A stretch of DNA of 64,000 nt from an uncultured Verrucomicrobia subdivision 3 bacterium (lineage in GTDB: Bacteria; Verrucomicrobiota; Verrucomicrobiia; Limisphaerales; UBA11358). This document shows, piece after piece, positions 4,957 through 63,220 of the stretch. How positions within the stretch are numbered: the first letter of the stretch is position 1; the number at the start of each line of letters is the position of its first letter. The notes under the pieces are model-generated. The model was not told the DNA's origin and did no database searches. It saw only the letters and a program-made list of their open reading frames with translations. Where the stretch lies: positions 11,009-75,008 of the forward strand of contig CAJAQO010000286.1 of the NCBI GenBank assembly GCA_903944085.1. Direction: 5' to 3'. A program made the position numbers and the translations under genes.

Positions 4957-5157
4957 CATTCTTCGCGGGGGCAAGGAAATCATGAAACCATTTGGCTTTC
5001 TCGACATTTGCCATGGGCGACAGGGAAGTTGTCGCGCCGCGACAAAGAATCCGTGTTTCATCCGTGGCTAAAAACAATTGGTCACCCCGTCCTGCTCCCA
5101 GCCGCCAGGCGCGGGGATGCAAAAACGCCGATTTTTGATGGATGTATATGTTTTTTG

Positions 5158-5500
5158 GACAAAGCCGTTGTTTCGGCAGGCCACTCCGGTGATTTTTTAG
5201 GCTACTCCGTTGCTGCGGATGGCCACTCCGGTAAATTTTTTGACCACTCCGTTGTCGCCGACGACCACTCCGGTGATTTTTCAGCCTGCTCCGGGGAAAT
5301 TTTAGTCCGCTCCATTGTCGCGGATCATCACTCCGGTGAAATTTAAGGCTGCGCCGTTGATTTTGAACGTCGCGCTGTTGCCGCCGATGGTCACTCCCTT
5401 GATTTTGAAGTCCACTCCGTTGATTCCGAAGCCCACTCCGTTGCCGCAAGTGCTTACTCCGTAGCTTCAGAAGGTCACGCCGTTGGCTTGGACGCCCGCA
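5158..5500. repeat. degenerate tandem array of about 16 units of about 21 nt (20-22 nt variants)
   Basis: Units share the core CACTCCGKT, e.g. gccactccggtgattttttag / gctactccgttgctgcggatg / gccactccggtaaattttttga / ccactccgttgtcgccgacga ... gtcacgccgttggcttggac. On the minus strand they read as heptads of the form x-N-G-V-x-F-x, interrupted by stops and frameshifts. Confidence 0.75.
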
Positions 5501-44427: not shown

Positions 44428-45144
44428 TTGATTGTTTTCACGCGCGCCGCCGCTTTAATTGTCAGGTCTGTGGCTGAACCCATCGTCAAAATCCGCGAGC
44501 TGACCAAGCTGTATTCCCAAGGCGAAATCCAAGTGACCGCGCTCGACCGCATCACGCTCGACATCGCCGCCGGGGAATTCCTCGCGCTCATGGGACCGTC
44601 CGGCTCCGGCAAATCCACGCTGTTGCACATCATCGCCGGCGTGGACCGCCCGACCAGCGGCCAATGTCTTGTGCAAGGTGTGGATGTGACCAAGCTGAAC
44701 GAATCGGCACTCGCCGACTGGCGCAACCACAATGTCGGCTTCATTTTTCAAACCTTCAATTTGATTCCCGTTTTGACCGCTGCCGAAAATGTGGAACTGC
44801 CGCTGCTGCTCACGCGGTTGAGCCGGACGCAACGTCGCAAGCAAGTTGAAACCGCGCTCGAAGTCGTCGGCCTCGCTGACCGCGCGAAACATTTGCCGCG
44901 CCAGCTTTCCGGCGGACAGGAACAGCGCGTGGCCATCGCCCGCGCGCTCGTGACCGACCCGGCGCTCATCGTCGCCGACGAGCCGACCGGCAATCTCGAT
45001 TCGCACAGCGCGCAAGAAGTTCTTGGAGCGTTGCAATCGCTCCGCAAGGACGCCGGCAAAACCATCATCATGGTCACGCACGATCCGAAAGCGGCGGCGT
45101 TCGGCACGCGGCAAATCCATTTGGAGAAAGGCGAGCTGTCTTGA
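44428..45144 (+). CDS. ABC transporter ATP-binding protein (MacB/LolD type)
   Basis: [11 protein letters not shown] (Walker A), [15 protein letters not shown] and [11 protein letters not shown] (Walker B). Exact start uncertain. Confidence 0.88.
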
Positions 45145-45145
45145 T

Positions 45146-45563
45146 TTCCAATTTTCAATTGCCAATCGCCAATTTGAAATTATGAACGCCGAAGAGATGA
45201 AATTGCGCACGAAAAAATTCGCGCTGCGAATCATGAAGCTGGCGGATTCTTTGCCACGCTCGCCATCGGGTCGAACGTTGGCTGGACAAATTGTGCGGTC
45301 CGGAACTTCTGTAGCGGCCAATTACCGAGCGGCGGGCAAAGGTCGTTCCAAGGCTGAATTCATCGCCAAACTGGGCATTGCCGAGGAAGAAGCCGATGAA
45401 ACTCAATTTTGGCTGGAGTTGATTATCGAGTCTGGAGTGGTGAAAGAAAATTTGATCCAGCCATTATTGCAAGAAGCCCGCGAGTTGACCGCCATCATTG
45501 CCGCCTCGCGGAAATCAACCGCGCAGAATAAATAAATTGGCAATTGGCGATTGAAAATTGGAA
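45146..45563 (+). mobile_element. 418-bp cassette: four-helix-bundle gene bounded by inverted heptamer arrays, inserted at the ATPase/permease junction
   Basis: Left array: ttccaat tttcaat tgccaat cgccaat ttgaaat (45146-45180). Right array: attggca attggcg attgaaa attggaa (45536-45563). The reverse complement of the right array matches the left at 26/28 positions. No transposase is present. Confidence 0.45.
45182..45535 (+). CDS. four-helix-bundle protein (23S rRNA intervening-sequence protein family, TIGR02436/PF05635-like)
   Basis: MNAEEMKLRTKKFALRIMKLADSLP ... GQIVRSGTSVAANYRAAGKGRSKAEFIAKLGIAEEEADETQFWLELI carries the family signature GTS..ANY.EA ... S..(D/E)F..K...A.KEA.ET..WL. Confidence 0.85.
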   Translation: MNAEEMKLRTKKFALRIMKLADSLPRSPSGRTLAGQIVRSGTSVAANYRAAGKGRSKAEFIAKLGIAEEEADETQFWLELIIESGVVKENLIQPLLQEARELTAIIAASRKSTAQNK

Positions 45564-45572
45564 ATACCCGAG

Positions 45573-52040: not shown

Positions 52041-52721
52041 ATGAGTTTAAAAATTGCCGGACAATTCTCAATGGCTGTTACCTGCGCGGCTGGTTTGACG
52101 TGCGCCATGCTTCCAATTTCCGCAAATGCCCAATCAACCATTCCCGGTGTTTTTAGCACGGGGGTTGATAGTTTGGGAAATCTCCTGCCTGGCGCACAGA
52201 TTGACCCGCACTACACGATCACCAGTTCTCCGCTCGGCAGCAGTTCAGCCTATGCCACTTCGCCGATAAATCCATATTGGGGGGCAAACACCGTCACCTC
52301 GGCTTGGATCAATCAAACCGGGGATGCCACTGGACCCACCGATGATGAACCGGCGGGAACTTATGTTTATACCTTGACGTTTAATCTGGTCGGATTCAAT
52401 CCGGCCACGGCAAACATTACCGGCGAATGGCTTTCCGACGACTCCTCAAGCATCTGGCTTAACGGGGTTCAAACTGCATTTTCAAATACCTCCAACACCG
52501 CGTTTGCCTTTTTCACGCTCAATAGCGGATTTACCGCCGGCGTCAACACGCTGCAGTTTTACATAACCCAGATCGCCCAAGGCCCGATTAACCCCGAAGG
52601 CTTGCAGGCAAACATTTTCACTGCAACTGCGGTGGCAGTGCCTGAACCGGCACCGGTCAGCCTTTCACTCATCGGCTGCCTGAGCTGGTTTCTGATCCGA
52701 AAGCTTAAAAAGCAGGTTTGA
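52041..52721 (+). CDS. PEP-CTERM-anchored secreted protein
   Basis: N-terminal signal peptide. The C-terminus VPEPAPVSLSLIGCLSWFLIRKLKKQV has PEP, a TM helix and a basic tail. Confidence 0.8.
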   Translation: MSLKIAGQFSMAVTCAAGLTCAMLPISANAQSTIPGVFSTGVDSLGNLLPGAQIDPHYTITSSPLGSSSAYATSPINPYWGANTVTSAWINQTGDATGPTDDEPAGTYVYTLTFNLVGFNPATANITGEWLSDDSSSIWLNGVQTAFSNTSNTAFAFFTLNSGFTAGVNTLQFYITQIAQGPINPEGLQANIFTATAVAVPEPAPVSLSLIGCLSWFLIRKLKKQV

Positions 52722-53168
52722 TATTTTCTTAAGTGTTAGGTGTGGCGTTGAAGAAGGCGGCGCGGGCTTTGTAGCGCTGAACCGGGTTTTTTTGATCTCG
52801 GCCTCAATCGCAGCCAATTGGCGCTGATGCTCGATGATTTTATCTGGATCTCCCGCGTCGAATGTTTCGACCAACTCCTCGCGCTATTGCGCCAACCGTT
52901 GCAACTGGTGTTCGGGCGTCTCGCCCGATGATCGAACTGGCGGTGAGACGCCGCCGGCACTCGCCGCCGAGGACGGCCGCGCTACCTTGGCTCCGGTTCA
53001 GGGATGCAAGGCGCGAAATTCGTTCTCGAGAAATTCTTGCGGACACCCTTGCTCGGCACATGGGGGGCGATTGCCCGTCAAGTCAGCCGTGAAGCCAAAG
53101 CCAATTTTTATTTCGCCGCCGGTCGCTTCCTGCTAAAACTTTTGCAGGTGGATTTACCCAAACCAGCC

Positions 53169-56100
53169 ATGTCTCCGGTCACCGGCGAACGCCTCGTGCG
53201 CTTCATCGGCGACAAAATCCTTTTCTCCATCAACGCCGGCAGGAATTTCGCCGCGCCGAAAAACTGGCGCGCGCGACTCCGCACCAATCTCGGCCGCGCC
53301 GCCGCCCGCCGCCAAGAAATCATCTCCGCCCATGCCGGCCGGGCGGTGGTCGCCAATTCCTCCTGGCGGGACGTGCCGATGCAACCAACCGCCGAAGGCT
53401 GGGCCATTGAGCTGCCGCTCGCGGAAGTCGGCTACTTTCAGGCCAAGGCTTACCTGCTCGACGAAAAAAACTGGCAGCACTGGCCCGATGGCGCGGACGC
53501 CGGCATTTCGGTGCATCCGAATTTTGCCCGGACGGCGAACACCCTTTACTGCGCCTTCACCCGGCTTTTCGGGGCGACCAAAAATCTCGCGGCCACCGCC
53601 GATGAAAAATTGGATACGCAGTTGAAATCGCTGGAAGCGCAAGGCTACGCCACGCTGCCGCCGTCGGGCAAATTCCGCGACCTCACGCGGCAGTTGCCCT
53701 TCATCGTCAACCAACTCGGCTGCCGGATCATTCATCTCTTGCCGGTGCATCCGACGCCCACGACCTACGCGCGCTTCGGTCGTTTCGGCAGTCCTTACGC
53801 CGCGCTGGATTTGACGGCGGTTGATCCCGCGCTCGTCGAATTCGACCAATGCACCACCGGTATTGACCAGTTTTGCGAACTAACTTACGCGGCACATTCG
53901 CTCGGCGCGCGCGTGTTCATTGATATCGTCATCAACCACACCGGCTGGGGTTCGAGCTTGCAGGAAAATCACCCGGAGTTTTTCCTGAAAAATCCCGACG
54001 GCTCATTCGCCAGTCCCGGCGCGTGGGGCACGGTCTGGGAAGATTTGGTGGAACTCGAACAGCACAGCGTCAAACTTTGGGATCTCATCGCCGACTCGCT
54101 GCTCGTCTGGTGCCGGCGCGGCGTGGATGGTTTTCGCTGCGACGCCGGCTACAAAATTCCCGCGCCCGCCTGGCAATACATCGTCGCCCGCGTGCAGGAG
54201 GAATTTCCCGAAACCATTTTTCTGCTCGAAGGTCTTGGCGGCTCGTGGGACGCGACGGAACTTTTGCTAACCGAAGGCGGGATGCAATGGGCGTATTCCG
54301 AATTGTTCCAAAATTATTCCGGCAAAGAGGTCGCGTGGTATCTCGACTACGCCAGCCGGCAAAATGAACGCGTCGGCAGCTACGTGAATTATTCCGAAAC
54401 GCACGATAACGACCGTCTCGCGAAAAAAGGCCGCGCCTGGTCGCTCCTGCGAAATCGGCTGTGCGCGCTGACCAGTCCGAGCGGCGGTTTCGGTTTCACC
54501 TGCGGCGTGGAATGGCTGGCGACGGAAAAAATAAAAGTCCACGGCAACACCGGCCTGAACTGGGACGCCGCCGAAAACATCGTGCCCGAACTCGCGCAGC
54601 TCAACCAGCTCGTCGCCGATCATCCATGCTTTTTCGACGGCGCAAGACTCACGCGCCTGAGTGCGCCCGATTCACCAGTTTACGCGCTGCTCCGCGAATC
54701 CGCCGAAGGCAAGGATTTCGTTTTAATTTTGGTCAACACGGAGCTGGAAAATCCAAACGCGCTGACGCTCGAAGTTTCCGCTTTCCACTTTCCGCTTTCC
54801 GCTTTTGCGTTTGATTTGCTCGGCCAGCCGCTCCCGAAAATTTCCGCCACCAAAAACGAAATCGCGTTCACACTTCCGCCGGGCGCAGTCTTCTGCCTCG
54901 CGCCGACCGAGAAACCTGCCGGTTTGAGCGGCGATAATTACCGCCGTGTCCGCGCGCAAGCCGCCTGGGCCTTGGAATCATTGAATAAAATCGTTGCCGC
55001 CGAAACCATTGACGGCCTCGACTGGCTGTGGCTCGCGGCGCAGGTTGAATCGTCGCCGAAAAATTTTCTCGCCGCTGCCAGCGAATTCGCCGCGCGCGAA
55101 GCCAAAACTTCGCTCGCCGATTTGTTGGCTGAAGTCAGCGCCGGAAAGGTTTTTCCCCGCGTGGTCGAATGGACATTGCTGGATGCCCGCCGCGTCACGC
55201 TCGTGCCGCCCGGTCATTGGCTGCTGATTGAAGATTCCGCGCCGTTCCGGGCCGAATTGCGAAGTCAGAAGCCAGAAGTCAGAAGTCAGAATGAAACTGC
55301 GGTCACGTGCCACATCCAGTCCATCGCCGTCGGCGACCGGCACATCGCAACATTTGCGCCGCGCGATACAACGGCCGAATCCAATTTAATTGTGGAACGC
55401 TACGCGACCACTTCGCCAAAAGTTTCCGCCGCCATTCGTTTTCTTTCCGCCAATCCGCAATCCGCAATCCGCAATCCGCAATCCGGCGACCTGGTTTTAT
55501 TGACGAATGGTATCGGCGGCATGGCGCGGCTGTGCGTGGACCTGGGCCGCATAAATTCCAAATACGACTGCGCGCTCGGCGCAAATCTGAATCCCGCCGT
55601 GCCGGTGGACCGCCACGTTTTGGTGAAGCGAATCCGCGCCTGGGTGAATGCGGACGGTTTTCTGTCGCCGTTGGATTTCAAAAATCTCGCGTCGTTCCAG
55701 CCCGGCTCGCCGGCCGTCTGGAATTTTGTGGCGAACGCCGGCGACGGCCGCACGGTGGAAATTGAACTGCGCGCGGAAATGCTCGACGGCAAAAACACCA
55801 CCGTTTTTTACTTTCGCCGGCCCACGGAAAAACTCGCACAGGGAAAACAGTTGCCTGCCGACGCCGATGTGCGCTTGACCGTGCGCGTGGACATCGAAGA
55901 CCGGAATTTTCACAGCGAAACCAAACGCAACAGCGGCGCGGATTTCCATTTCGCGTCGAATTGCCATCCGATTGGTAGCAGCCGACGTGAGGAGGCTCAT
56001 TCTAAAAAGGCGCAAGGCGGAAGGCAGAAGGCGGAAATTAATTTGAGCCTCGTCACCTCGGCTGCTACAGAATTATTAACGGGCTTCATCTTCACGCCCG

Positions 56101-57587
56101 CCCCTGACCGCCAGTTGCGCGTCTTTGCCGACGCCGGCGAATATCATCCGCAGCCAGAGTGGTGCGAAAACATTCCGCATCCGGTCGAGCAGACGCGCGG
56201 CCAAACCGGCAGCGGCGATGCCTACAGCCCCGGCTGGTTTGAAATTCCGCTCGCAAAAGGCACCGAGGCAACGCTGGTGCTGACGGCGGAAACGGAGCAA
56301 AGCAAAAGCGGAAAGCGGAAAGCGGAAAGCGGAAAGGCAGAAGCCAATTTTGAAGCGCAACTTGCACGCGCGGCGAAACAATTCGTCGTGCGCCGCGATG
56401 AGGGCAAAACGGTCATCGCCGGCTACCCGTGGTTTCTCGACTGGGGTCGCGATTCGCTGATTTGTGCGCGCGGGCTTTTAGCCGCCGGCATGGTTGACGA
56501 GGTGAGGCAGCTTTTGCTCACGTTCGCCAAATTTGAAAAAGACGGCACGCTGCCCAACACGATTCACGGCAACGACGTTTCCAACCGCGACACGTCGGAT
56601 GCACCGCTGTGGTTCGCGGTCGTGTGCGAAGAAATTTCCAAGATTAAAAATCCGAAATTAAAAACCAAAGATTTTTACGCGACGCTGGTGGATGAAAATG
56701 GCCGCACCCTCCGCGACGTGCTCGCGAGCATCGCCGAAAACTACGCCAAAGGCACGCCGAACGGCATCCGCATGGACGCCGATTCCGCGCTCATCTGGAG
56801 TCCGAGCCATTTCACCTGGATGGACACGAATTTTCCCGCCGGCACGCCGCGCGAAGGTTATCCCGTCGAAATTCAAGTGCTGTGGATTCGCCTGCTGCGG
56901 CTGCTGGCAACTATTTCCGCCAAGACCGATCAAAAGAAATGGCAGGATCTCGCCGAACACGCGCTGGCCTCGTTTGAAAAACTTTTCTGGCTCGAAAATA
57001 AAGGCTGGTTTGCCGACGTGTTGATCGCCAAATCAAATGTCATCGCGCGCGACGCCGCGGCGAGCGATGCATTGCGCAGCAATTGTCTTTTCGCCGTCAG
57101 CCTCGGCCTCGTCACCGGCGAACGCGCGAAACGCTGCGTCGCGGCGGCGCAAAAATATCTCGTCGTGCCGGGCGCGCTGCGCTCGCTCGCACCGCTGCCG
57201 GTGGCCGTGCCGCTGCCGATTTTCAGCAACGACGGACGGCTGATCAACAATCCGCCGGAGCCGTATTGGCCGCGTTACGAAGGCGATGAGGACACGCGCC
57301 GCAAGCCCGCGTATCACAACGGCACGGCGTGGACGTGGACGTTTCCCAGCTTTTGTGAGGCGATCGTGCGTGCATGGGATTTTTCGCCGGCAGCCGTGGT
57401 GGCGGCAAAAGCGCATTTAGTCAGCGCGGAAAAAATTCTGAATGAAGGCTGCCTCGGACAAATCCCGGAAATTCTCGACGGCGACGCGCCGCACACGCAG
57501 CGCGGCTGCGATGCGCAGGCGTGGGGTGTGACCGAAACGCTACGCGTGTGGAAAATGTTGAATTCGCACGCTGCGCAGGCAAAATGA
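53169..57587 (+). CDS. bifunctional-looking GH13 alpha-amylase-family domain + glycogen-debranching amylo-alpha-1,6-glucosidase (GDE_N/GDE_C) fusion
   Basis: GH13 regions: FIDIVINHTG, DGFRCDAGYK, FLLEGLG and YSETHDND. The central part LLTNGIGGMARL ... DRHVLV is GDE_N-like. The C-terminal part is GYPWFLDWGRDSLICARGLL ... YHNGTAWTWTFPSF ... CDAQAWG (GDE_C). The ORF is open from 53004; ATG 53169 is preferred. It contains five translated repeat insertions. Confidence 0.8.
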   Translation: MSPVTGERLVRFIGDKILFSINAGRNFAAPKNWRARLRTNLGRAAARRQEIISAHAGRAVVANSSWRDVPMQPTAEGWAIELPLAEVGYFQAKAYLLDEKNWQHWPDGADAGISVHPNFARTANTLYCAFTRLFGATKNLAATADEKLDTQLKSLEAQGYATLPPSGKFRDLTRQLPFIVNQLGCRIIHLLPVHPTPTTYARFGRFGSPYAALDLTAVDPALVEFDQCTTGIDQFCELTYAAHSLGARVFIDIVINHTGWGSSLQENHPEFFLKNPDGSFASPGAWGTVWEDLVELEQHSVKLWDLIADSLLVWCRRGVDGFRCDAGYKIPAPAWQYIVARVQEEFPETIFLLEGLGGSWDATELLLTEGGMQWAYSELFQNYSGKEVAWYLDYASRQNERVGSYVNYSETHDNDRLAKKGRAWSLLRNRLCALTSPSGGFGFTCGVEWLATEKIKVHGNTGLNWDAAENIVPELAQLNQLVADHPCFFDGARLTRLSAPDSPVYALLRESAEGKDFVLILVNTELENPNALTLEVSAFHFPLSAFAFDLLGQPLPKISATKNEIAFTLPPGAVFCLAPTEKPAGLSGDNYRRVRAQAAWALESLNKIVAAETIDGLDWLWLAAQVESSPKNFLAAASEFAAREAKTSLADLLAEVSAGKVFPRVVEWTLLDARRVTLVPPGHWLLIEDSAPFRAELRSQKPEVRSQNETAVTCHIQSIAVGDRHIATFAPRDTTAESNLIVERYATTSPKVSAAIRFLSANPQSAIRNPQSGDLVLLTNGIGGMARLCVDLGRINSKYDCALGANLNPAVPVDRHVLVKRIRAWVNADGFLSPLDFKNLASFQPGSPAVWNFVANAGDGRTVEIELRAEMLDGKNTTVFYFRRPTEKLAQGKQLPADADVRLTVRVDIEDRNFHSETKRNSGADFHFASNCHPIGSSRREEAHSKKAQGGRQKAEINLSLVTSAATELLTGFIFTPAPDRQLRVFADAGEYHPQPEWCENIPHPVEQTRGQTGSGDAYSPGWFEIPLAKGTEATLVLTAETEQSKSGKRKAESGKAEANFEAQLARAAKQFVVRRDEGKTVIAGYPWFLDWGRDSLICARGLLAAGMVDEVRQLLLTFAKFEKDGTLPNTIHGNDVSNRDTSDAPLWFAVVCEEISKIKNPKLKTKDFYATLVDENGRTLRDVLASIAENYAKGTPNGIRMDADSALIWSPSHFTWMDTNFPAGTPREGYPVEIQVLWIRLLRLLATISAKTDQKKWQDLAEHALASFEKLFWLENKGWFADVLIAKSNVIARDAAASDALRSNCLFAVSLGLVTGERAKRCVAAAQKYLVVPGALRSLAPLPVAVPLPIFSNDGRLINNPPEPYWPRYEGDEDTRRKPAYHNGTAWTWTFPSFCEAIVRAWDFSPAAVVAAKAHLVSAEKILNEGCLGQIPEILDGDAPHTQRGCDAQAWGVTETLRVWKMLNSHAAQAK
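54775..54816. repeat. in-frame heptamer array (TTTCCGC-type, 6 units)
   Basis: tttccgc tttccac tttccgc tttccgc ttttgcg tttgatt, translated as VSAFHFPLSAFAFD. Confidence 0.85.
55261..55295. repeat. in-frame heptamer array (GAAGTCA-type, 5 units)
   Basis: gaagtca gaagcca gaagtca gaagtca gaatgaa, translated as RSQKPEVRSQNE. Confidence 0.85.
55451..55485. repeat. in-frame heptamer array (CAATCCG)x5
   Basis: Five perfect copies of caatccg, translated as ANPQSAIRNPQSG. Confidence 0.9.
55975..56068. repeat. 94-nt in-frame palindromic element: 25-nt terminal inverted repeats around an (AAGGCGG)x4 array
   Basis: The left arm gtagcagccgacgtgaggaggctca (55975-55999) and the right arm tgagcctcgtcacctcggctgctac (56044-56068) are complementary at 23/25 positions. 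Inside lies aaggcgc aaggcgg aaggcag aaggcgg (56007-56034). Translated as SSRREEAHSKKAQGGRQKAEINLSLVTSAAT. Confidence 0.85.
56305..56339. repeat. in-frame heptamer array (AAAGCGG)x4 plus degenerate unit
   Basis: aaagcgg x4 then aaaggca, translated as KSGKRKAESGKA. Confidence 0.9.
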
Positions 57588-62768: not shown

Positions 62769-63220
62769 AAAAGCGGAAAGCGGAAAGCGGAAAGCGGAAA
62801 CTCCCGCGACTACGGTTAAATTTCGTTCTCATAAAATTTTCTTCGTTTTGCGGCCAATGGTAATCAAAATTGCCAGTAATTGACCAGACTCGTCCAGCAG
62901 TTCAGCGATTTGTGCTTCAGATCCAAGACCAGTATCCTGGCAAATTTCCAACCAATAAACCGTCTCGGCGGCTTCCTTTTCCGCCACACCGATTTTGTGA
63001 ACGAAATCGCTTTTGGATTCGGTGCGATTCGCTTCTCGGTAGTTTGCCCCGATTGAAGTGCCAGCCTTAAGCAATTGCCGTCCGATAATTTGTCCCTCGG
63101 CGTTTTTGGGAAAAGCCGCAACCGTTTTGACCACTTGCACGGCAAACTTTCGCGTCCGTTCTTCCAATTCGGTTCGCATACAAATTCAATTTCCGCTTTC
63201 CGCTTTCCGCTTTCCGCTTT
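62769..63220 (-). mobile_element. 452-bp cassette: four-helix-bundle gene bounded by a perfect 31-nt inverted repeat made of GCGGAAA heptamers
   Basis: aaagcggaaagcggaaagcggaaagcggaaa (62770-62800) is the exact reverse complement of tttccgctttccgctttccgctttccgcttt (63190-63220). It sits between the oxidoreductase 3' end and the hddA ATG. No transposase is present. Confidence 0.45.
62829..63179 (-). CDS. four-helix-bundle protein (23S rRNA intervening-sequence protein family)
   Basis: MRTELEERTRKFAVQVVKTVAAFP ... GRQLLKAGTSIGANYREANRTESKSDFVHKIGVAEKEAAETVYWLEI, the same signature as the 45182 gene. Confidence 0.85.
   Translation of the reverse strand: MRTELEERTRKFAVQVVKTVAAFPKNAEGQIIGRQLLKAGTSIGANYREANRTESKSDFVHKIGVAEKEAAETVYWLEICQDTGLGSEAQIAELLDESGQLLAILITIGRKTKKIL

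Follow-up and report, generated by a model that had tools for sequence, protein, structure and literature searches.

Within a 64,000-nucleotide (nt) stretch of DNA from an uncultured Limisphaerales bacterium (Verrucomicrobiota), hereafter the window, a gene for a glycogen-debranching-type enzyme of 1472 amino acids (aa) carries five short repeat elements that are built on heptanucleotide units and read in frame. Orthologous enzymes from related genomes hold arrays in the same loops with other units, and the identity of the unit tracks the genome more than the site. We consider these arrays to be, probably, passenger repeats in permissive loops that are renewed in place by homogenisation plus templated copying between arrays.

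The source assembly is a metagenome-assembled genome (MAG) of 5.79 Mb in 335 contigs, with a G+C content of 57%. On the plus strand of the window, a single open frame spans 53004-57587, and the ATG at 53169—the start as in the orthologues—delimits the host gene (53169..57587), in agreement with the 1472 aa given in a preliminary description of this DNA. Its product comprises, by Pfam, GH13 Alpha-amylase, GDE_N and GDE_C (amylo-alpha-1,6-glucosidase) domains, with a middle beta region between the catalytic GH13 domain and GDE_N. The gene is intact in every orthologue examined, hundreds of its residues are invariant in a 21-sequence orthologue alignment, and comparison with L002, one of its nearest relatives, revealed differences of 9%, 7% and 32% at codon positions 1, 2 and 3, respectively, implying purifying selection. 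All five repeat elements fall within the one open frame, and the five peptides quoted for them in the preliminary description are present in the translation. The description's claim that the arrays are translated within one open reading frame (ORF) therefore holds for an intact, conserved gene; the untranslated pseudogene that it had allowed for is ruled out by the open frame, the strong conservation and the substitution pattern by codon position.

The arrays themselves are real. They were detected with Tandem Repeats Finder (TRF) and by an independent periodicity scan: TRF reported period 7 at all five positions with 86-100% matches, and the scan returned tracts of 31, 31, 35, 26 and 32 nt where the preliminary description had placed five in-frame arrays, confirming their positions. 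Array A (54775..54805; plus strand, like all elements that follow), a (TTTCCGC)4.4 tract of 31 nt with 22 of 24 periodic matches, encodes SAFHFPLSAF; its minus strand equals, with one mismatch, a 31-mer that is canonical in this genome, (AAAGCGG)4AAA, so that A represents the rare hydrophobic and disfavoured orientation of that sequence. Array B (55261..55291), (GAAGTCA)4.4 over 31 nt, encodes RSQKPEVRSQ and ends in a partial unit, GAATGAA, that is common to the orthologues. Array C (55451..55485) is a perfect (CAATCCG)5 tract of 35 nt in the periodicity scan (28 of 28 matches), reported by TRF as 5.6 copies of TCCGCAA at 55446-55485, and encodes NPQSAIRNPQS. Element D (55975..56068) is a 94-nt hairpin of the REPIN type (REPINs being paired, inverted repetitive extragenic palindromic (REP) sequences), read in frame, in which two 25-nt arms (55975-55999 and 56044-56068), with complementary bases at 23 of 25 positions, enclose a 44-nt loop; inside the loop lies a degenerate array D' (56007..56036) of about four AAGGCGG units (4.3 copies by TRF). 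Array E (56305..56336), a perfect (AAAGCGG)4.6 with 100% matches, encodes KSGKRKAESGK, contains the canonical 31-mer and occupies the linker between GDE_N and GDE_C. The units of A and E are reverse complements of each other, hence the four distinct units that the preliminary description had rightly counted. Ranked by abundance, A and E belong in opposite orientations to the first unit family of the genome and C to the second, while GAAGTCA of array B ranks 37th. Only element D forms a hairpin, no inverted partner being present close to A, B, C or E.

Such a concentration is far from expectation. About 0.16 in-frame arrays are expected per 4.4-kb gene, at which the probability of at least five is ~7e-7 per gene, and the host gene indeed holds the most arrays of any gene in the genome. 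By a conservative count, 35 other ORFs contain two arrays, nine contain three and one contains four; ORFs with several arrays lie, among other places, at C155:20276-23734 and on C134, C196 and C227.

The elements belong to a class found throughout the source genome. Period 7 accounts for 168 exact tandem runs of at least three copies, as opposed to 36 at period 6 and 8 at period 8, and a whole-genome TRF search recovered 473 non-overlapping period-7 arrays of at least 24 nt, falling into 101 unit families. Their length distribution has a sharp mode at 31-32 nt that is alike in coding and non-coding DNA, indicating that array length is not set by the reading frame; arrays of 40-124 nt occur only outside genes. 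Roughly 266 arrays are solo, 79 pairs form hairpins with a 20-30-nt spacer, and some 23 pairs are spaced further apart. When only perfect AAAGCGG arrays are considered, 26 of 31 start in the same phase and 18 of 31 are the identical 31-mer (AAAGCGG)4AAA. Unit repertoires vary widely between genomes of the genus: three tandem copies of AAAGCGG have 58 matches in the source genome, 30 in genome G005 and none in G012.

Copies within genes bear the marks of selection. Arrays are depleted there, with 37% lying deep in coding sequence as compared to 57% of random positions. Among arrays with same-strand coding sequence on either side, 157 preserve the reading frame as opposed to 14 that do not, several of the latter being gene junctions. 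In total, at least 173 in-frame copies are present in the genome, far above what has been reported for Xanthomonas. Among 129 coding arrays that are free of stop codons on both strands, the more hydrophilic strand is the sense strand in 97 (p = 8e-9), with mean hydropathies of -1.05 and +0.14 in this comparison of sense and complement, and AAAGCGG is read in the sense orientation 28 times, its complement three times. A selection filter on frame and peptide is strongly supported by these observations. The preliminary description had offered two options, namely that only frame-preserving copies in tolerant loops survive, or that the arrays arise by a mechanism respecting the frame. The ratio of 157 to 14, the hydrophilic bias and the location in loops (see below) bear out the first; the second stands in the trivial sense that the content of settled arrays is renewed without a change in length, and otherwise fails.

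Mapped onto an AlphaFold model, as the preliminary description had proposed, all five elements are predicted to sit in loops of the host protein. Array A is placed between strands E91-96 and E109-110 of the beta domain following GH13, with a predicted local distance difference test (pLDDT) score of 73-82. The other four have pLDDT values below 50 and are modelled between strands (array B in a loop connecting two of them) or in the linker between GDE_N and GDE_C. For the middle region of the enzyme there is no solved structure, and only the GH13 and GDE_C parts have distant relatives in the PDB.

We compared the host gene with its orthologues in two steps, first by aligning 20 relatives together with the DNA of the array sites—alignments that are uncertain inside the loops—and then with 80 further named orthologues, which made a set of 81 genes and whose loci place the source organism among Limisphaerales MAGs of soil and peat. 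This revealed 94 in-frame arrays in 37 of the 81 genes, all of them confined to six loops near residues 535, 700, 765, 935, 1045 and 1160. The aligned part contains 15 regions of variable length, nine of which carry no array. No frameshifted allele was found among the 81 orthologues. At sites A, B, C and E, many members of the genus have an array at the identical position, in the same register and of the same length, made of a different unit, and occupancy of shared loop positions extends beyond the genus, down to ~62% identity. Many other orthologues lack arrays altogether, with the enzyme otherwise conserved. Site B illustrates the exchange of units: GAAGTCA in the window corresponds to GAATGCA in L002, GAATCCA in L005, GAATGCG in L006, GGAGTGC in L017 and GGAGGGC in L014. 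At site A, TTTCCGC in the window faces AAATTTC in L031, whose first unit is the hybrid CCGATTT. Edge units are conserved (GAATGAA at B and CCGxTTT at A). The array at site E is common to L033, L034, L058, G005 and G010, and is partly decayed in some of them. At the sixth site, F, 11 orthologues carry an array; in the window gene, the corresponding residues ~1150-1170 (56631-56675) are weakly periodic (7/10) and may represent a decayed array.

The lengths of the loops bear on how the arrays came to be there. With and without an array, respectively, loop A measures 28 and 27 aa, loop B 21-28 and 17, loop C 20 and 22, loop D 20 and 13, loop E 26 and 26-41, and loop F 31 and 26. Net differences of -2, ~0, +4 to +8, +5 and +7 aa rule out a fixed insertion of 31 + 2 nt. 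The preliminary description had proposed checking for clean, lineage-specific insertions, a notion that is untenable for A, B, C and E, as the relatives carry arrays of other units at the same positions and loops A, C and E are no longer with an array than without. It does apply to element D, an addition of 75 to 96 nt that is absent from all orthologues.

Are these arrays simply old? Divergence from L002 at four-fold degenerate sites amounts to K = 0.51, at which a neutral 31-nt tract has a probability of P ~4e-4 of staying unchanged on one lineage. The arrays are perfect or nearly so in both the window and the L002 lineages, with different units, and a gene tree built after masking the arrays is not reflected in the unit states. 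It follows that the arrays must be renewed. As to the source of new units, a common unit is found in 12 of 116 pairs of arrays that lie at different sites of the same gene, as compared to 52 of 3475 pairs in the background and 43 of 779 when one site is compared between genomes (permutation p = 0.0004 for the unit tracking the genome more than the site). For instance, the unit ACGCATC recurs at sites C, D and F of L035 and at B, D and F of L036. The stricter rule that a site always takes its unit from a dominant family of the genome was rejected because of TCCGAAC in G012 and GAAGTCA in the window, both private to their locus.

The molecular route of this renewal we infer from the patterns above. 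The five segments would be passenger copies of the genome-wide heptamer class of ~31 nt, one of them residing inside a REPIN-like hairpin, and such arrays may persist in the few permissive surface loops and domain linkers of a functional enzyme, with selection purging those that disrupt the frame, introduce stop codons or yield unsuitable peptides. Once occupied, a loop would stay occupied for long, its content being renewed in place, in register and without change in length. Two processes could achieve this. Within an array, slipped-strand mispairing and repair would homogenise the units, which may explain why units at the edges are left in their ancestral state. Between arrays, short templated copying via template switching or gene conversion would draw on other arrays of the same gene or genome as donors, so that units come to match the current families of the genome; copying of this kind is our proposed cause of the tracking. 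In-place renewal of long-lived slots is favoured, since random re-insertion followed by filtering would fill other tolerant loops as well and local slippage cannot make distant sites share units.

Several points weigh against this interpretation. For the two locus-private units, local evolution alone suffices. Exchange would have to operate between arrays that share only 3-5 bases per unit, by a mechanism that is hypothetical, and the discrete, fixed-phase 31-mer could instead reflect transposition of a defined element. The net insertions at B (+4 to +8 aa), D (+7 aa, or 21 nt) and F (+5 aa) are of unexplained size. Further, the AlphaFold model, which covers residues 440-1472 and was built on a 21-sequence alignment, is of modest quality (mean pLDDT 68), all genomes compared are MAGs, and the coding calls derive from our own heuristic of ORFs and codon scores over 210-nt flanks.

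Two further kinds of locus that contain heptamer arrays bear on possible mobility. The first is the family of element D, whose termini read GTAGCAGCC...GGCTGCTAC. At least 21 paired GTAG...CTAC copies exist in the genome, in both orientations, with loops of 11-24 nt where they lack an array and of 35-57 nt where they hold one; in their GTAG start and inverted-doublet arrangement they conform to REP/REPIN sequences. In search of a REP-associated tyrosine transposase (RAYT) we found four Y1_Tnp genes in the genome, none of them within 1.5 kb of any GTAG arm, a weak negative given how short the contigs are. Palindromes also occur in the orthologues. The closest relative compared, L002 (G012), has a 66-nt palindromic element (GGACAGACGTCGCGCCTGTC ... 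GACAGGCGCGACGCCTGTCC) in frame inside the GH13 domain, at alignment columns ~1260-1325, that is absent from the window gene, and in L017 (G005) a 30-nt palindrome, TCCACCCTCCGCAGTGCTACGGAGGACGGG, splits the TTTCCGC array of site A in frame (alignment columns 51-80).

The second kind of locus encodes a PF05635 (Avd-like, four-helix-bundle) protein. One such cassette (62770..63220, no strand assigned; protein encoded at 62865-63161) lies 6.4 kb downstream of array E and is bracketed by (AAAGCGG)4AAA and its inverse, its ends being the exact 31-mer of the family of A and E. Altogether, 10 of the 11 PF05635 genes in the genome are bracketed by inverted arrays of ~31 nt, with a unit particular to each cassette (a hexamer in one case, an octamer in another); besides 62770-63220, they include 45144-45565 in the window and copies on contigs C169, C87, C59, C265, C155, C321 and C28. 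The cassette units rank 1, 5, 6, 9, 10, 11 and 14 among the 101 families and are thus among the most abundant families of solo arrays. PF05635 is related to the Avd protein of diversity-generating retroelements (DGRs; PMC10053308), and the DGR Avd of the source genome matches PF22296 and, weakly, PF05635. That DGR, at C314:2647-5620, is a classical one with an FGE-type target, a bAvd-like gene (PF22296), a reverse transcriptase and, downstream, an adenine-rich template repeat. Its reverse transcriptase is the only one in the genome, and no DGR-type template repeat for the heptamer arrays is found next to it. The generalisation that each dominant family is matched by a PF05635 cassette ending in its unit holds in the source genome and fails in G048, where the dominant family, ACGCATCx3 with 68 matches, adjoins none of the four PF05635 genes.

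These loci bring into play an alternative that we regard as unlikely, namely that mobile elements of ~31 nt, being ends or miniature derivatives of mobile cassettes such as those with PF05635, insert repeatedly and hit the same loops, which selection then trims. The enzyme behind this, perhaps a reverse transcriptase, could be encoded by the element or by the host. The bracketing of PF05635 genes by high-ranking units, the identity of the 62770-63220 ends with the 31-mer of A and E, the presence of arrays inside GTAG hairpin loops, and the kinship of PF05635 with Avd in a genome that has a DGR reverse transcriptase would all fit. Random re-insertion with subsequent filtering should, however, not avoid the other nine regions of variable length, nor place new units in register with old ones and leave hybrid units at the edges. 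No target-site duplications were seen when we looked for them around the canonical AAAGCGG 31-mers, the dominant family of G048 is not found beside that genome's PF05635 genes, and the hairpin arms have no Y1 transposase gene in their vicinity. Cassettes as the driver remain a minority reading. A bolder reading that is likewise rather doubtful posits an undescribed, active copying system with the arrays as its cis-elements, which recognises an array by its 7-nt periodicity and not by its sequence and overwrites it at the same length with the 31-mer currently active in the genome, the Avd-like PF05635 cassettes, with their ends of the same 31-mers, being its autonomous or helper partners, possibly together with a polymerase or reverse transcriptase. 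If this were true, array-holding loops would be rewritable slots and a new form of templated coding diversification.

Purely local slippage would dispense with any exchange: a chance seed in each loop, concerted evolution within the array and survival only of 21-nt changes. Polymerase slippage is a published proposal for heptamer repeats (put forward in PMC4679880 with reference to Mrazek 2007, for which we rely on that citation), and much at single sites agrees with it. At site B, one or two base changes separate the units of relatives, which stay in register and have a common terminal unit; of the 17 orthologues with an array at site D, 11 are longer there by 21 nt, the exact length of three units; a few orthologue arrays measure 56 nt, or ~35 + 21; and private units exist. 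Yet slippage leaves unexplained how one unit came to fill three loops of a gene, the excess of unit sharing within a genome, the 18 identical 31-mers in a single phase at unrelated loci and the identical 31-32-nt mode in non-coding DNA. Moreover, slips by a single unit would inactivate genes, and not one of the 81 orthologues is frameshifted. We therefore judge slippage on its own improbable as an account of the arrays.

Very unlikely is a function for the arrays themselves, be it in binding a heptamer-specific factor at the DNA or RNA level, in contingency switching or as flexible linkers favoured by selection. They are long-lived at the same sites and stay perfect, and, as at contingency loci, their unit length is not divisible by three. 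Against this stand the lack of any frameshifted allele among 94 arrays in the 81 orthologues, the free variation of units at each site, which leaves no fixed peptide or binding word conserved, the many array-free orthologues with an otherwise conserved enzyme, and a copy number of ~4.4, short for an efficient switch. Decay of the gene into a pseudogene, or an origin of the arrays in faulty assembly, can practically be dismissed: beyond the fragmentation of the MAG nothing was found in support, and the 1472-aa frame is open with hundreds of residues invariant across 21 orthologues, codon positions carry the signature of purifying selection, and arrays of 31 nt are shorter than the reads and recur in independent assemblies.

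Two further features of the window lie apart from the arrays. The ORF just upstream of the host gene (52041-52721) ends in a PEP-CTERM-like sorting signal, with VPEPAP, a hydrophobic stretch and basic residues, and TRF reported periods of 42 nt (3.4 copies, 5151-5293) and 21 nt (2.5 copies, 5392-5443) that are unrelated to the heptamers.

Among long simple repeats, those of heptanucleotides are the most over-represented in many bacteria, and they have no accepted mechanism or function. The host gene offers a natural experiment on them, with six fixed, translated slots that can be followed across 81 species and a reading frame that exposes which changes survive. The resulting constraints on mechanism are tighter than those from intergenic surveys: units track the genome, length and register are kept, and one 31-mer is identical to the ends of an Avd-like cassette. 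It is also evident from this gene that peptides of ~10 residues in conserved enzymes can be rewritten over evolutionary time, with consequences for annotation, for alignment-based phylogeny and for protein engineering, as permissive insertion sites are marked.

How do the arrays compare with known repeats? Published accounts (PMC4692102, PMC4679880; both cite Mrazek 2007 on heptamer repeats) describe heptamers that are over-represented, tend towards about four units, occur as inverted pairs and sometimes lie within genes, among them GGGAATC arrays in Xanthomonas, GGGGA(C/T)T arrays in Nostoc and the short tandemly repeated repetitive (STRR) sequences of Calothrix and Nostoc (Rehm et al. 2015, PMC4692102). 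The remark in the preliminary description that in-frame tandem heptamers would be new was therefore overstated, as both the repeat class and its intragenic copies are on record. Like those repeats, the arrays studied here are dispersed, consist of 7-nt units arranged head to tail with an excess of period 7 and a preference for about four units, occur solo and inverted, lie at different genes in related species and are in part intragenic. Unlike them, they comprise about 100 unit families, most of which are not G-rich, so that a G-quadruplex explanation for the number four does not apply. More than one third of the arrays lie deep in genes and are read in frame, as compared to intragenic shares of 7-11% in Xanthomonas and 32% in Nostoc (PMC4692102), and orthologous loops hold on to an array while its unit changes, with units tracking the genome. 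In the literature we came across neither a paper on heptamer arrays of Verrucomicrobia nor one describing how units turn over at orthologous sites that are read in frame.

Other systems share single features with the arrays. Rickettsia palindromic elements (RPEs) are likewise selfish repeats lying in frame at surface-exposed, permissive sites of conserved genes; RPEs are palindromes of 100-150 bp in fixed sequence families, whereas four of the five elements here (A, B, C and E) consist of tandem repeats over 31-35 nt that form no palindrome. Element D resembles REP/REPIN sequences in its GTAG...CTAC termini, its two inverted 25-nt arms with two fixed mismatches and its paired copies, and departs from them in lacking a nearby Y1_Tnp gene and in carrying heptamer arrays in the loops of its family. 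As in the intervening sequences of 23S rRNA that contain a PF05635 ORF, PF05635 is bracketed here by inverted repeats, and DGR retrohoming, too, overwrites a target without a change in length; in contrast to both, the arrays in the host gene have no ORF and no template differing at adenines, and any link to a reverse transcriptase would be hypothetical. With contingency loci the arrays share a repeat unit inside an ORF that is not a multiple of three, but they have few copies, show no out-of-frame alleles among relatives and reside in housekeeping rather than surface genes. What is known, then, are the heptanucleotide repeats of Xanthomonas, Nostoc and Geobacter; what is new is their behaviour at in-frame loops, which act as slots whose units are probably renewed in place.

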